Source: Nitrospiraceae bacterium
Lineage (GTDB): Bacteria > Nitrospirota > Nitrospiria > Nitrospirales > Nitrospiraceae
Reading direction: 5' to 3'
NCBI GenBank assembly: GCA_037442105.1
Contig: JBBIQV010000012.1
Span: 1-64,000, forward strand
Length of the DNA stretch: 64,000 bases
A program made the position numbers. Shown one piece after another: positions 36,301 through 42,300 of the stretch (position 1 is the stretch's first letter; each line of letters begins with the position of its first letter).

Positions 36301-39300
36301 GATGCCTGCACGCAAATAATCTCTATCTGCCATGTCCAAGAGGCGCACAAGCGTTTCTTCCAGTTTTCGCCCACGCATGAACTCCAAGCCGGATAGCCAG
36401 AACCTCCTTAAATCGTTGCCGTTGAATTTCAGGCGACTACTTTGAAGCCCTTGGAGTTCTCCAATGACATGGGAAGTCGTCATCAGCGATTTGACGCTCT
36501 TGAACAGGTTCAGATACCTTTCCTCATAAGCCGGAATCTCCAAGACTTCCTTTGTCACAACCCTTCTTAAAATTGTCGATCGCCTGTTCGTGTCGGCCTG
36601 CGTCTCGTTCAGGAAATGCAGGGTCAGGACAGTAATGAGTGGGCCGGTGTCAACGACGGCTTTTTCGAGAAATTCACCCATGGGACCGATAGTAAGATGG
36701 TTAGCCGACCATCTCCTGAACGCTTCCAGCCGGAACCATGTACGGCACATCGTGCTCAAGTGACAGTTCCTGCCTTCGCTGCCTCAGGATCGCTGTGAGA
36801 CGCTCCACCGTTCGCAGTGCCGCCGTTCCGGCCTGGTCCACTGCGTCACGATACGGCCGAATAGAGGAATCCTCGGCAATGGCCATGAACGCGTCTCGGT
36901 GCTGATTCCAAAGCCGAGCCGGCGCGAAGTAATCGGGAAGCTCGCTGGAGTTATTGACAATGTATTGAGCGAGGACCGCGAGATGATCTGCCGGGGGGTA
37001 AGCGCCAAACAGATCGTTAACGGTGACCCCGAGCTTTCCAAGAGCCTCTGGAGAAGTCACCGCTTCGTACTTCTCGCGCAAAGCCGGATTTTCCTGAATT
37101 GTCTGCTGGAGAGTCTTACAGTTCTCTAGGAGATGAGACACTGCCGTATCATGTTCCTCGATACCCATTCCGAGATTCGGGAAGAACTCTAAACATTGAT
37201 CGAGGTTGTCCCTGGCGTCGACCTCAAGATGGACGCGCACAGGATGAATTAATTCCAGATCGGCAGGCCGAAACCGCCACGTCCAATTCCGCTCCTTCAA
37301 CAGTCTTTGCTCGGTCTCCAGGGCTCGCAGCAAAGGGTTGATGACCGTGTCAAACCAGGCCCTTACAATGCGCGGCCCGATCTTATGGCCTTTTGCAGTG
37401 GTTCGGGATTTTTTGCTCATGGCTTCCGTCTCCTCACGAGGTCGCGACTTCTTCAATGGCCCCTTTCAGCATCAACTGGCTGACTCGCACCTGCCCGGTC
37501 ATCAGCAAGTGAAGCATGGTAATAAAGACCGACCCAAGGGTCCGGCGTTTGCTGCTCGCCGGTATGAAACCACCAGACTCCGACCGTCAGGGTGAGCAAC
37601 TTCCTCTGCGTCAACCCGCAAGTGGAGACGTTCAACCAGCCCACCCTTCCGGTCCCAAGGTAACGACCAGACCAAACCTATCTCCTGTCCGAGGCAAGGA
37701 TGTGCTCGGCCCACCGAACGAACTGTTCCGCCAACGTCACGGCACGCCGGTATTCGCTTTCCGTCACAGGCTCATCCGTGCCCGGATACCGTGTCTCGAC
37801 CGCGTAGGGTGACAGGATGCCGGCCGCTTCCTTCAACGAGGCGTCCACGCCCTGACCGGACTGCTCAAGGACGGCGAGCAACTCTCCGATGTCATGGACG
37901 TACGGGTAGGGCACGCGGCGGAACAGCAGCACCGCTTTGACGGCCTTCTCGGCCGCTTGCTGCGCATCAAAACAGAGGTCTTCCCAAAACGCTTCCTCCG
38001 GCTTCGTTTGTTTCGCGCGCGCCAAGTTGCCCTTGGCTCGCCTGAGCCACTCGCGCGGACCATCGTCCCGGCCCGTGTCATGCGGCATAAATGACCTTTC
38101 CCTCTCTGAGAGCCGGGTAAATGACGGACCCGATCGAGTCCCGGTGTCGTTCAAGGTCGTCAGGCGTGACGACGACGATATCTTTGGGAACGCCGATCCC
38201 TGCCAGGGCTTGGTAGAGGCGTTGGGCGGTCTCACGCCGATGGCGCTGGGCCTTGACGACCAGAAGATCCACATCGCTGTCCGGCCCCATTTCCCCACGC
38301 GCGGCGGAGCCGAACAGAATGATCTTCTCCGGTTGGACCGCCTCGACGATGCGACGCACGATTTCCTGGAGAAGTTCGGCGCTCACGGTCGTCCCGAGCC
38401 GAGGTTCCTGATTCATCGCAGCCCCCTTGGGGTGAAAGGCGGCGCCGGCCCTCCCTTTCCCGTGGCCGGGAATCGGGTGCGTGACCCGCACCTCCCCGGT
38501 CATCAGCAGGTGGAGCAGGGAGGAGAAAAGGGATCTAAGTGTGGTTGCTTTTTGTTCAGTTGCTAGCAATTGTCGGTCAAGGCTGCCTAGGATTTGCACA
38601 ATCTGCTTTTGCTCAGAAAGATCTGGCAACGCCAGCTCCAATACTTCCAACTTCTCCTTGGGAAGATGAGCTATCGTTGTTTTTGTCCCCGATGGTTTGT
38701 GACTGCGAAAGATCGTGAAAGCGGCAGTGGCCCAATAAAGATAATATCGAGGAAGGATGCGATTGGCTTCTCTTGGCCTCAAGCGATGGAGAGCTTTTTG
38801 GTAACAGCATTCTGTGATCTCCCCGCCCCAAACAGATGTTCGCCCTGGCTCACCTCCCTCGCACACGAGGATGTCTCCCGGTTCTAAACGAAATCTTTCA
38901 AATTCGTCGTCGGTGAAATCCATCTCAAACACTTCGGTGAGATCAAATCTCCCCCATTGCACATTCTTGTTTCGGAGATAAGCCCGCGGGTTTATGCCCC
39001 TCCTGGATTTAGGAGAAAGCATCTTTCCTAACTCCACCTTGAACAGGTCCCCAACGCGCACCACCTCCCAGCTCTCCGGAATCTCACCGATCTCGGTCTG
39101 CTTGAGGCGCTCGCCGAGGAGGCCTTCGCGGAAGAGCTTGGCCATGGTTGCGGCCTTCAACTCCTTCAGCGCGGCAACGAGCTTGTCCTGCACCTCCACG
39201 GCCGCCTGAATCTTCTCCAGCACCGCCGCAATCGCGCGCTGCTCAGGGAGGGGAGGAACAGCAATCTCCTGCTTCAGAATGTCATTGTCTGTTACAGCGG

Positions 39301-42300
39301 GGTAGCTGGCTCCACGTTCCAAGTTGCCGACACGACTGAGAAAGTCCTCGGTGAGAAGCGAGTAGTAGATAAAGCGGCTATCAGCTTTTGTTGGATCTGC
39401 ACGAAGCACACAAAAAGCAGTTGAAACGATTTGCCCGTCCAGACTCGGCGGTACCATGGCAACACGCTTAAGGGTAGGTCTAACGGTTGCGAAGATAACA
39501 TCCCCCTCTTGGACCACTTTGCGCGCCCGACTCGGAGCCGTTGCACCTGCGTGCCGTGTCGTGGTCGTAATCTTCAATAATTCGTTGGAAACAGCAGAAA
39601 CATCTATATATTCGAAGAAAGCATCAGGAGTCTTGGTCGGATCGGTGAGCGTGGTTTCGAGACAAAGTGATCCAATGGGAGCGGTATCCCAAGGTATGTT
39701 CTCGTAGTCCATCCTTATGATCATCCACGAAACCCGATCTGCTGTTTCGGCCGTTCCGTCGGCTCCATCAACTTGCGGATGGCGTCGAACACCACTTTGA
39801 ACTGCGCGTCGTATTTCTTCTCCAGAGCATCCAGCCGTCGGGCGAGGTCTTTGTAAGGCGCAATCATTTCCCGGAAGCGCACGAAGGCCCGCATGATTTC
39901 GATATTGACCTGGATGGCACGGTTGCTCTTCAGGACGCTAGAGAGCATCGCCACGCCCTGCTCGGTGAATGCGTACGGTGTGGCTCGCCGCATGCCGCCC
40001 CAACTTGAAATCACAATTTGTGATTTCAAACCGTGGAACTCTGATTTGGACAGTTGGAACATGAAGTCCGAAGGGAACCGCTCGATGTTCCTCTTGACCG
40101 CTTGCACTAGAGCGCGGGGCTCAACTTCATAAAGGCGGGCAAGGTCCGTGCTCAGCATGACCTTGTGCCCCCGCACCAGAAAGATGCGCCGTTCGATTTC
40201 CGGACTAGCCACCAGGCTTTTCATTCCTGCCTGCTCCTTTCCTGTTCAAGGTCACAAATTGTGATTTCAAGTTTGAGGTCACAGTTTGGCACCTCAAAGG
40301 CGAGCCTCTACCCCACCTGACCTCCCCTTACAAAGGGGAGGCAGGGGTCACGGCGTCCCCCACTTATAGCCAAGCCCACTGAAGATATCCTTGAGCTCTC
40401 CGTCCAACTTCTTGGCCTCCTCATCCAGTTTTGCCAGGTCATTCAAAACGGCCTGCACGTCGCGATGCTCCGTGGCCGTGGCGGTCTCGATGTAGCGGGA
40501 GGGGGACAGGTTGTAATCGTTCTTGACGATCTCCTCGCGAGCGACCACTTTGACGAAGCGCTCGACATCCTTGCCCGCGTGAAACGCTTCCGCGATTTTC
40601 TTGATGGACGCATCGGGAATGAAATTCTTGGGCCGTCCCTTCTGAAATTCGTTGCTGGCGTTGACCAGGATGATGTTGCCTTGACGGTCCTTTGGCTTCC
40701 AGCGGTTAAGCACGATGATGATGCCGGCGGCGGTGGTGTTGTAGAACAGGTTATCCGGCAGCAGGATCACGCCCTCGATCACGTCTTGGTCCACGAACCA
40801 GCGGCGAATGGCTTTTTCCTTGTTCTCCCCTTGGCTCCCGCTGCCCCGGCTGGCTGCGCCGGTATCAATGACCATCGCGGCCCGGCCCTGATCGTTCAGC
40901 GAAGCGAGCACATGCTGAAGCCAAGCCCAGTCGGCGCTAGAGGCCGGCGCAAAACCGCCGCGACCAGTGAAACGTTCATAGGGATCGTTCTCGTAGAGGG
41001 CCGGCTCGAAGTTGTCCTGGTTCCACATCGGATTCGTCACCACGATGTCGAACTGTTTGAGGCTTGAGCCGTCGAGGAACTTGGGGTTGGTCATGGTGTT
41101 GCCACGGACAATCTCGCCCTCCATGTCGTGGAGGACCATGTTCATCCGGGCGATGGCGAATGACGAGCCGGTGAGTTCCTGGCCATAGAGCCTGAGCGGG
41201 CGCGCAATGGTACGCTCGCGTTCCGCGAGAGCCAGCTCACATTTGATGAGCAGCCCACCCGACCCACCGCACGGGTCATAGACCTCTTCACCTTGCTTGG
41301 GCTGCATCAGGTAAGCGATCAGCCAACCCACTTCCTTCGGCGTGAAGAATTCACCGGCGCTCTGCCCCTGACCTTCGGCAAACTTGCGCAAGAGATATTC
41401 ATAGGCGCGGCCGAGAAAGTCCGGCTCCACATTGGTAAGGCCTAACCGATACCGGGGATTGCTCAGCAGTTCGATCAACCGCGACAGAGCGTCATCACTG
41501 ATTTCCCGCTCGCCGTTGCGGGTCTCGTTGTAGTCCACGATGTCGATCACCCCTTGGAGCGAGGGGTTGGCGCGGGCAATCGCCCGGACCGTGGCAGTCA
41601 GTTGTTCGCCGAGGGTTTTGGGCTTCTTTCCTTGAGGCCAGTCGAACTTCTGCCGGCCACTCACGACCGGCCAGGTAGCCTCCGGTGGGATGTAGAAGCG
41701 AACGAGGCTGTGGTCCGCTTCGAGCACGGTCATCGCCGTCTCCCTGCTTCCATAGGTTTCTGTGAGACGGGCGACTTCGTCCTCGAAGACGTCGGAGAGT
41801 CGCTTGATGAAGATCAGCGGCAGGATGTAGTCTTTGAATTTCGGCGCGTCCTTTTCGCCACGGATCGAACAGGCCGCTTTCCAGAGGAGACCCTCCATAG
41901 ACTTCGTGTCGAGCACTGCGCTACGTGAGTCATCGGATGACGGTTTTACCCCTCGGCGGGAGCGGCGTGATCGGACAGCAGGTTCACCTGTATGAACAGC
42001 CTCCCCGTGGTGACCAAAGTGGAGTTCGTAAAGATCAAGGTACTTCGAGCCCAGATCTTTGACACATTGCTCGATCGCGTGGAGAGCAAGTGCGTCGGGC
42101 TTCGTTTTCCCTTTCTCCCATCGGTTAATCGTTGGCAGGGAGACGCGAAGACGCGCAGCGAGCTTTTCCTGGCTGACACCGAGTCGGGCTCGCAACACAT
42201 TCAGCAGCCCTGGAACATCGAATTCATGCGGAGTCATCTGGTGCACCTCGCTTGATAGGGCGATGATATAAGATCATGCATCTGATAAGTCAAATGATGA

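Follow-up and report, generated by a model that had tools for sequence, protein, structure and literature searches.

A type I restriction-modification (R-M) operon in the window, the 64,000-nucleotide stretch of a Nitrospiraceae contig analysed here, has a specificity gene that continues into a minimal nucleotidyltransferase (MNT) and overlaps a HEPN gene. This raised the question of what an antitoxin-type enzyme does on the specificity subunit. The fusion may wire a cell-suicide back-up to the restriction machine, with the neighbouring HEPN protein as the candidate toxin. If so, an antitoxin enzyme has repeatedly been built into HsdS, and sometimes into HsdM, which would be a new coupling of immunity to dormancy; if read-through at the joint is simply tolerated, the fusion is no more than an oddity produced by the turnover of cargo. 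The fusion also offers a specific way to ask whether the class II HEPN/MNT pairs, which are abundant, are toxin-antitoxin (TA) systems at all.

The fusion gene and its operon

The fusion gene (38078..39724, minus strand) is a single open frame of 548 aa, in which a complete type I HsdS is joined in frame, through a linker, to an MNT domain. Pfam found Methylase_S in two stretches (best 216-390), NTP_transf_2 (454-517) and Polbeta (456-546), bearing out the genome-wide survey's note, which had described the specificity subunit as fused to an MNT. In the AlphaFold model (mean pLDDT 88.9) the HsdS and MNT parts were confident and residues 421-445 fell below 50; the modelled fold matched the solved HsdS structures 3okg, 5ybb and 1yf2 and the MNT 2rff. 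The two target-recognition domains (TRDs) and coiled-coil spacer expected of a type I HsdS (about residues 1-415) were supported by Pfam, AlphaFold and the fold match. The MNT domain (38078..38416, minus strand; 112 aa counted from an internal ATG, M437) retained an intact GSx10DxD motif (G472-S473...D484-x-D486) and D515, residues that the note had left unchecked. An assembly artefact was not supported as the source of the fusion: a contig of run X1, possibly this DNA's own source, equalled window positions 32300-41715 with 0 differences.

The genes hsdM, hsdS and hsdR were found together by Pfam, PADLOC and NCBIfam, and the PADLOC calls of the note were all recovered (Specificity_I, 9.2e-71, for the fusion protein; REase_I; MTase_I; PDC-S05). 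The start of hsdM (40348..42246, minus strand; 632 aa) was placed at 42246/42237 rather than at 41898, where the note had begun the operon, and the protein includes an N-terminal XRE-type HTH (Pfam HTH_3 18-59, N6_Mtase and HsdM_N; PADLOC MTase_I 1.5e-168). HsdM contained motif I at 324 and NPMW at 405, and HsdR (32915..35812, minus strand; 965 aa; PADLOC REase_I 2.1e-96) contained the nuclease (D..ExK), Walker A (GSGKT) and DEAH motifs, all of which we take to be catalytic motifs. An ORF6N-domain gene (39721..40224, minus strand; PADLOC candidate PDC-S05) lies between hsdM and hsdS, where it is common in sister loci, and a YgjP-like metallopeptidase-domain gene, also present in sister loci, lies behind hsdR (32556..32918, minus strand).

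Cargo also lies between hsdS and hsdR. The conserved hsdS 3' end (38482..38520, minus strand; family D5) is the first copy of a 39-nt repeat that the note had not mentioned, whose 87% identical second copy (37481-37519) lies in an orphan hsdS 3' end, a 27-codon stub behind the HEPN gene (37434..37519, minus strand). This pair was the region's only self-match in this contig (E 9e-5), and the position of the second copy behind the HEPN gene marks the MNT-HEPN unit as swappable cargo. An hsdR 5' stub ahead of the orphan hsdS stub was plausible by eye and not significant (1246/2000 shuffles); the hsdR 5' stubs in loci L005 and L007 were significant (0/2000 shuffles each). Further cargo comprised a gene for a 239-aa protein without a family (36701..37420, minus strand), for which Pfam, PADLOC, NCBIfam and the ESM Atlas returned nothing, and a 175-aa gene (36154..36681, minus strand). 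The latter product is possibly PIN-like, a lead from the ESM Atlas, where it scored 0.90 against clusters in which 44% of the members bear PF01850; Pfam found no domain in it. A small convergent ORF of 93 aa (35806..36087, plus strand) had a relative at the same place in locus L006. Promoter and terminator scans stayed at chance level, a search for plasmid carriers of the cassette gave no match, and a tmRNA attachment duplicate was dismissed, with only weak short matches on other contigs.

Spread of the fusion and its linkers

With a query that included the HsdS end beside the MNT, 103 of the 119 non-self long homologues among the matches listed (120 of 131 listed) carried HsdS, reproducing the count in the note. 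The GSx10DxD motif was kept in 80/81 single-MNT fusions. In a frame-blind DNA pattern search, all 13 matches (12 distinct loci) were in frame and stop-free, these matches being related by descent and representing about 2-3 independent linker groups; a HEPN gene came next in 11 of the 12 loci, and the contig ended there in the twelfth. Some surveyed loci were redundant (L011 duplicates L002, L105 duplicates L062, and L065 and L066 are near-identical). A single clade or origin of all fused MNTs was rejected (p-AU 2.6e-10; 102 columns, with some "solo" rows possibly being cut fusions), and in-frame fusion of the MNT to the C-terminus of HsdS has taken place several times. One type I R-M family often carries class II MNT-HEPN as cargo between its hsdS and hsdR genes, and within this family the fusion is optional: it occurred in 2/9 close sister loci found through HsdR, a count that leaves out the two search-centre loci because they had been found through the fusion, and in 0/22 loci at about 50% HsdR identity. 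A profile search of 50%-identity representatives returned junction matches of the known type and free MNTs. Free MNT/HEPN pairs were present on contig C38, as the note had recorded, and on C9. A 365-aa open frame in L088 looked like junk on inspection and was left out of the fusion count, and in L079 a free MNT-HEPN lay directly before hsdR.

A main linker family accounted for 59 of the 74 linkers. Its linker is helical and under purifying selection and has no strong internal start, as judged from sequence and models: it was modelled as a helix (pLDDT 90-94), its pooled dN/dS was 0.48 (8 loci compared in 28 pairs, which are not independent), and its ATG had a pairing energy of only -3.3 to -3.8 kcal/mol and gave way to L, V, W or S in 13/65. 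GTG/TTG codons with -6.4 to -7.7 kcal/mol, 44-57 aa before the LFGS motif in 8/14 main-family loci, leave room for hidden internal starts. Across linkers, the spacing between motifs ranged from 39 to 75 aa. Parallel fusions of HsdM with a class I MNT, accompanied by an RX4HXY HEPN, were found in L006, L008 and L069, and such fusions in 5 clusters; the HsdM fusions keep an internal start.

The linker in the window (38417..38481, minus strand; 22 codons) was a singleton among the 74 and was disordered in the AlphaFold model. It ends in a Shine-Dalgarno-like run (38422-38428), followed by an in-frame ATG at 38416 that was absent from the note. The pairing energy of this ribosome-binding site (-10.5 kcal/mol) was the strongest among 10 starts tested, and the ATG lies 33 aa ahead of LFGS, a distance also seen among free MNTs (mode 30). 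A free MNT is probably also made beside the fused form, and with its own ribosome-binding site and ATG kept, coupling would be only partial. A frameshifted family linker was rejected as its origin, the sequence having no DNA similarity to 14 other linkers (74-488/500 shuffles reached the score). The joint at this locus is an independent and probably recent read-through, distinct from the conserved family linker. Taken alone, this spacer would be in frame and free of stops with a chance of about 0.24 (1/3 x 0.73), so it is the family rather than the single locus that lifts the fusion above chance.

The HEPN gene and related systems

The HEPN gene (37678..38088, minus strand; 136 aa; PF05168, HEPN-T) overlaps the end of the fusion gene by 11 nt, as the note had stated. 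The note had also called its product an RNase toxin, which is not supported in that form: RX4HXY was absent from all 12 aligned HEPNs, and PMC7641770, in the part available, describes the TA status of class II HEPN/MNT pairs as still in need of validation. PMC11586414 likewise treats class II HEPN as unvalidated as a toxin, and no demonstration of its toxicity was found in the literature searched. H65, R100 and Y101 were invariant in 12/12 HEPNs, matching the class II description (a conserved tyrosine, a basic residue and a second His N-terminal to the motif); P102 was invariant as well.

The adjacent PF01909 and PF05168 domains, MNT first and overlapping, with GSx10DxD intact, a conserved tyrosine and no RX4HXY, correspond to class II HEPN/MNT pairs (PMC7641770, PMC3710099). 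Here, however, HsdS ends in the MNT as its C-terminal domain, a fusion not described in the available parts of those two papers, although clustering of HEPN-T with R-M operons is noted in the latter. HepT/MntA, a type VII TA system of class I, similarly has an MNT with an adenylyltransferase motif upstream of the HEPN gene (PMC7641770, PMC11586414, in the portions available), but the class I toxin is PF01934 or PF08780 with RX4HXY, whereas Pfam found only PF05168, without RX4HXY, in this HEPN; the NCBIfam MntA score was 32.6, against a cut-off of 60. PrrC of EcoprrI, according to the accessible text of PMC3710099 and PMC12707154, is likewise an effector of the HEPN family that is encoded within a type I hsd locus and follows a back-up logic. 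PrrC is an ABC-ATPase-HEPN protein with Rx4-6H held non-covalently by the R-M complex, while the HEPN here is small and stand-alone, with a dedicated enzyme antitoxin as part of HsdS. In Ronin (bioRxiv 10.1101/2023.04.06.535777) HsdMS restrains a linked effector until anti-restriction proteins set it off, and similar control is proposed here; RonA is a 61-aa membrane toxin in a system without hsdR, whereas here hsdR is intact, a HEPN domain takes the place of the linked candidate effector and a fused enzyme that of the candidate inhibitor. The guilt-by-embedding work on type I R-M operons (bioRxiv 10.1101/2024.01.29.577857) likewise deals with variable cargo among the core R-M genes, with PDC-S05 present, but its main text, as far as it was available, mentions neither hsdS nor MNT nor nucleotidyltransferase. 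The fusion joins the R-M-embedded guard theme of PrrC and Ronin in a new form; no description of an HsdS-MNT fusion was found in the literature searched.

Readings of the fusion

We tentatively favour, at slightly below even confidence, that the fusion ties antitoxin supply to HsdS, as an addiction or back-up layer guarding the R-M system. In its favour are the many HsdS-bearing homologues with the MNT motif kept, the frame-blind matches with HEPN next to them, the lack of unfused MNTs near visible hsdS ends, the features of the main-family linker, TRDs that change beside a constant tail, the rejected single clade, the parallel HsdM fusions and the tolerance of HsdS for a C-terminal fusion. 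Against it are the missing RNase motif and unvalidated toxicity of class II HEPN, the optional nature of the fusion, the disordered linker in the window with its strong ribosome-binding site, the GTG/TTG codons of the main family, the free pair in L079, the internal start of the HsdM fusions and the shared descent of the pattern matches. The note had gone further, predicting that HEPN is released upon disturbance of the R-M complex. In such a direct sensor, HEPN would be held on the R2M2S complex through the fused MNT, and binding of an anti-restriction protein of the Ocr, ArdA or Stp type would free or activate it, in the manner of PrrC and Ronin. The prrC-like placement of the cassette between hsdS and hsdR, the Ronin precedent, the ordered and conserved main-family helix, and MNTs on both HsdS and HsdM in the same loci agree with this. 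MNT antitoxins of the studied class, however, act by covalent AMPylation (PMC7641770, in the part available), the effect of which would persist after dissociation; moreover, the linker in the window is disordered, with a strong start from which free MNT is probably made, linker lengths vary, and the class II HEPN has no RX4HXY. We consider direct sensing unlikely, and less supported than addiction or back-up.

It is likewise unlikely that the MNT is a tolerated passenger. On this view MNT-HEPN often lands at the 3' end of hsdS, loss of the stop codon produces read-through without harm, one lineage has become widespread, and the pair works without any tie to the R-M complex. The MNT family is very abundant (7578 short relatives), the hsdS 3' and hsdR 5' stubs point to frequent cargo turnover, HsdS tolerates a C-terminal GFP (PMC2914225, in the available part), internal starts are kept in this fusion and the HsdM fusions, and most sister loci are missing the cassette. 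Yet no unfused MNT occurred within 600 nt of a visible hsdS end in any locus surveyed (for L013 and L057, where the survey picked the central HsdS repeat, the true ends were located separately), a real upstream fusion was absent from all 21 free MNT loci remote from hsd genes, the fusion arose repeatedly, and the main-family linker is under purifying selection without a good start. A quite improbable reading is that class II HEPN is a non-toxin, substrate-binding partner of a two-subunit nucleotidyltransferase, which the fusion would recruit to the R-M complex so that it acts on another target (HsdM, HsdR, a phage protein or nucleic acid). The lack of RX4HXY, the nearly invariant MNT catalytic residues and the role of HEPN domains as non-catalytic nucleotidyltransferase partners in other enzymes (PMC3710099, in the text available) suit it. 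H65 and R100, however, agree with the alternative active site that has been put forward for HEPN-T, Y101 is in keeping with the conserved acceptor tyrosine, and the same pair is mostly far from R-M genes (HEPN at 19/21 free MNT loci).

Under the favoured supply coupling, the fused HsdS is predicted to fold and would most likely assemble with HsdM. The tethered MNT, predicted to be competent from its intact motif, would most likely neutralise the translationally coupled HEPN by AMPylating Y101, by analogy with class I pairs. In the main family, where no start for the MNT alone is evident, antitoxin supply would depend on in-frame translation of hsdS and last only as long as HsdS; its loss, frameshift, shut-off or proteolysis would leave new HEPN unmodified and lead to growth arrest. 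The locus in the window, as a separate and probably younger read-through with fused and free MNT, would be only partly coupled. A bolder proposal, possible but not one we would lean on, is that HsdS, within a working type I R-M enzyme, acts as the enzymatic antitoxin of a HEPN RNase with a non-canonical His/Arg site, unleashed by HsdS loss, inhibition-triggered turnover or frameshift (or, in double-fusion loci, by those of HsdM with its class I MNT), and that the cassette recombines at the conserved hsdS 3' end, grafting itself onto new DNA specificities. TRDs were found to differ while the tail stays: in L007 and L013 the MNTs are 100% identical and the TRDs 30% and 19%.

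The HsdS–MNT fusion and its operon

The type I restriction-modification (R-M) locus lay on the minus strand directly behind a tmRNA gene (31652–31999). It held hsdM with an N-terminal HTH (40348–42246), an ORF6N/PDC-S05 gene, MNT-fused hsdS (38078–39724), a HEPN gene (37678–38088), three further ORFs, hsdR (32915–35812) and, beyond hsdR, a YgjP-like gene; the actual hsdM start was about 350 nt upstream of where the genome-wide survey's note had placed it. By membership, the system is a type I R-M system with a class II HEPN/MNT module. The hsdS frame continued stop-free into the domain of the minimal nucleotidyltransferase (MNT), the putative antitoxin, with G472-S473, D484, D486 and D515 present. 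AlphaFold modelled both the HsdS fold and the MNT with confidence, residues 421–445 between them being disordered, and the model resembled solved HsdS subunits and one MNT structure. The survey's claim that HsdS is fused to an MNT holds. Between 32300 and 41715, no differences were found from a contig of sequencing run X1, possibly the source of this DNA. The fusion at this locus alone is not clearly more than chance (approximately 0.24 for a 66-nt spacer being in frame and stop-free); it is the family pattern that places it beyond chance.

An XRE-type HTH at the HsdM start (42069–42246) was common to close sister loci and may serve autoregulation. A perfect 22-nt inverted repeat (40002–40023 and 40252–40273, arms 228 nt apart) had one arm within the ORF6N gene and the other upstream; its degenerate neighbours were spaced 27 nt apart. 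In each of the four runs compared, numerous unrelated contigs matched a short intergenic element (40306–40341), which resembles a widespread small repeat.

Recurrence, linkers and internal starts

A search with residues 385–548, which include the HsdS end and bias the result towards HsdS-bearing matches, returned 131 matches. With the query set aside, 119 matches were listed: 103 carried HsdS and 16 had no HsdS match, in agreement with the survey's figure of about 100 HsdS-bearing proteins among 119 long homologues. A single MNT was present in 81 of the 103 listed HsdS-bearing proteins (motif GSx10DxD in 80) and two MNT domains in 22 (P0004, P0007, P0008, P0010 and 18 more); in 20 of these 22, the motif was missing from the first domain. 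Locus L009 encoded an HsdS with two intact MNT domains and a different HEPN subtype. Two HTH-bearing proteins without an HsdS match (P0089, P0100) had, at their ends, a C-terminal motif of hsdS type followed by a linker and an MNT.

A DNA pattern search open to any frame and any spacing of 121–181 nt matched 3 genome and 10 metagenome sequences, all 13 (12 distinct) in frame and stop-free; as they represent only two or three linker groups, they are not 12 independent trials. HEPN followed in 11 of the 12 distinct loci, and the twelfth contig stops at the MNT stop codon. No unfused MNT occurred within 600 nt of the hsdS end among loci where this end was visible. In 251 genomes of the phylum of the Rokubacteria genome, the 25 MNT matches comprised three HsdS fusions, one free MNT next to hsdR and 21 that were not near hsd genes; HEPN accompanied 19 of these 21. 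Close sister loci identified via HsdR (63–82% identity) were fused in two of nine cases with a visible hsdS end, and HsdR relatives at about 50% identity in none of 22. The HsdS–MNT fusion is optional and recurrent.

HsdM was fused as well. In L006 (oriented 2359–4912), L008 and L069, the hsdM frame continued into that of a class I MNT, with an internal start retained, and the next gene encoded a DUF86-like HEPN whose RX4HXY was intact; these loci also had an MNT-bearing HsdS. The five HsdM–MNT clusters (P0368–P0372) were 81–94% alike and so probably reflect one event; their longest contigs equalled those of HsdS–MNT matches in size.

The 74 linkers between HsdS and MNT clustered into families of 59 and 5 and ten singletons, one of them the window's. 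The main linker (59 members) is constrained, with a pooled dN/dS of 0.48 (28 non-independent pairs, 8 loci) and far lower values in close pairs (e.g. pS 0.38, pN 0.02). It was modelled as a helix (pLDDT 90–94), the model covering the fold of the linker itself. TRDs were swapped between loci with the MNT tail retained. L008 and L069 had TRDs 72–85% like the window's yet carried the main linker; one specificity has thus been joined to MNT via two unrelated linkers. In a 60-row tree, the window MNT grouped with free MNTs (support 95), and the window locus is an independent instance of the fusion. A single clade of all fused MNTs was rejected (p-AU 2.6e-10; short alignment, some 'free' rows possibly cut fusions).

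The window's fusion is probably leaky. At 38416, 33 aa ahead of the MNT motif LFGS and inside the start range of free MNTs, it contains an in-frame ATG. Of 10 starts tested, this one paired most strongly with a generic anti-Shine-Dalgarno sequence (−10.5 kcal/mol), against about −3 for the start of hsdS itself. Where the 14 family loci had a linker ATG, it gave −3.3 to −3.8; in eight of the 14, GTG/TTG codons 44–57 aa ahead of LFGS gave −6.4 to −7.7. Among 65 proteins, 13 had a residue other than Met in place of the linker ATG. Runs X2 and X3, which are probably one data set, contained a relative that matched 37674–38534 with 19 substitutions and no gap, behind a different second TRD.

The HEPN partner and possible coupling

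The HEPN belongs to PF05168 and is related to 1ufb, 1o3u and 1wol. RX4HXY occurred in none of 12 aligned partners; H65, R100, Y101 and P102 were invariant. According to the accessible parts of the papers cited here, PF05168-type HEPNs are class II, with a conserved tyrosine and a TA status awaiting validation (PMC7641770), the RNase motif is confined to class I (PMC11586414), and an alternative His/Arg site has been proposed for HEPN-T (PMC3710099), with which the conserved residues are compatible. No experimental test of a class II HEPN/MNT was found in the accessible literature searched. The HEPN, a putative toxin, is the weak link of the proposal. Free class II MNT–HEPN pairs in the same genome (C38:22863–23625, MNT 58% identical; C9:59559–60204, 50%) are possible cross-talk partners.

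The tethered MNT would AMPylate Y101, and unmodified HEPN would arrest growth. We tentatively favour coupling via the supply and stability of HsdS. Since a covalent mark would persist after dissociation, we rank this above the release of HEPN when an anti-restriction protein makes contact, which seems unlikely. HsdS tolerates a GFP fusion (PMC2914225), and the MNT might, with rather low probability, be a tolerated passenger. MNT and HEPN could also form a non-toxic two-subunit nucleotidyltransferase, which we consider quite improbable.

PMC3710099 already reports HEPN genes within R-M operons and draws the PrrC analogy; PrrC itself (PMC12707154), Ronin (10.1101/2023.04.06.535777) and embedded cargo of type I R-M operons (10.1101/2024.01.29.577857) have also been described. 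The window's system is neither a class I HepT/MntA nor a PrrC or Ronin system, but may work like them. HsdS–MNT or HsdM–MNT fusions were not found in the accessible parts of the literature searched, mostly papers open without subscription (including PMC3632139, PMC2701414, PMC12839542, PMC5499597, PMC4621449 and PMC8610362), nor in that of PMC3710099, whose supplement was covered in small part and may list them. HsdS–MNT is a real, recurrent and apparently undescribed architecture.

Cargo between hsdS and hsdR

A 39-nt repeat of the hsdS 3' end (87%) lay 1001 nt downstream, beyond HEPN. Such hsdS stubs were likewise found in L007, L072 and L103, each preceded by an hsdR 5' stub; ahead of the window's stub, no hsdR stub was detectable. 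In L005, a double stub was in frame with linker, MNT and HEPN. Stubs of hsdR 5' alone occurred in L013, L062 and L050, and a further hsdR stub in L053. The simplest reading is that cargo has been stacked and swapped by recombination at two conserved flanks; a cassette whose MNT frame opens on the hsdS end would join any hsdS it recombines with.

Across the type I family, hsdR 5' and hsdS 3' stubs punctuated the hsdS–hsdR cargo. The window's cargo included a 239-aa gene (36701–37420) that had a strong ribosome-binding site and matched nothing in four libraries, a possibly PIN-like gene (36154–36681) and a small convergent ORF (35806–36087) with a relative before hsdR in L006. The regions 31652–32050 and 32191–32353 held the tmRNA gene, an assembly gap directly behind it and short stretches that recurred on contig C6. 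One contig, which covered just 22 letters on one of the two sides, linked 32321 to 42422 and hints weakly at the ends of an island. Immediately before the tmRNA gene lay a gene with HTH, histidine-kinase-like ATPase and DUF4325 (30415–31425).
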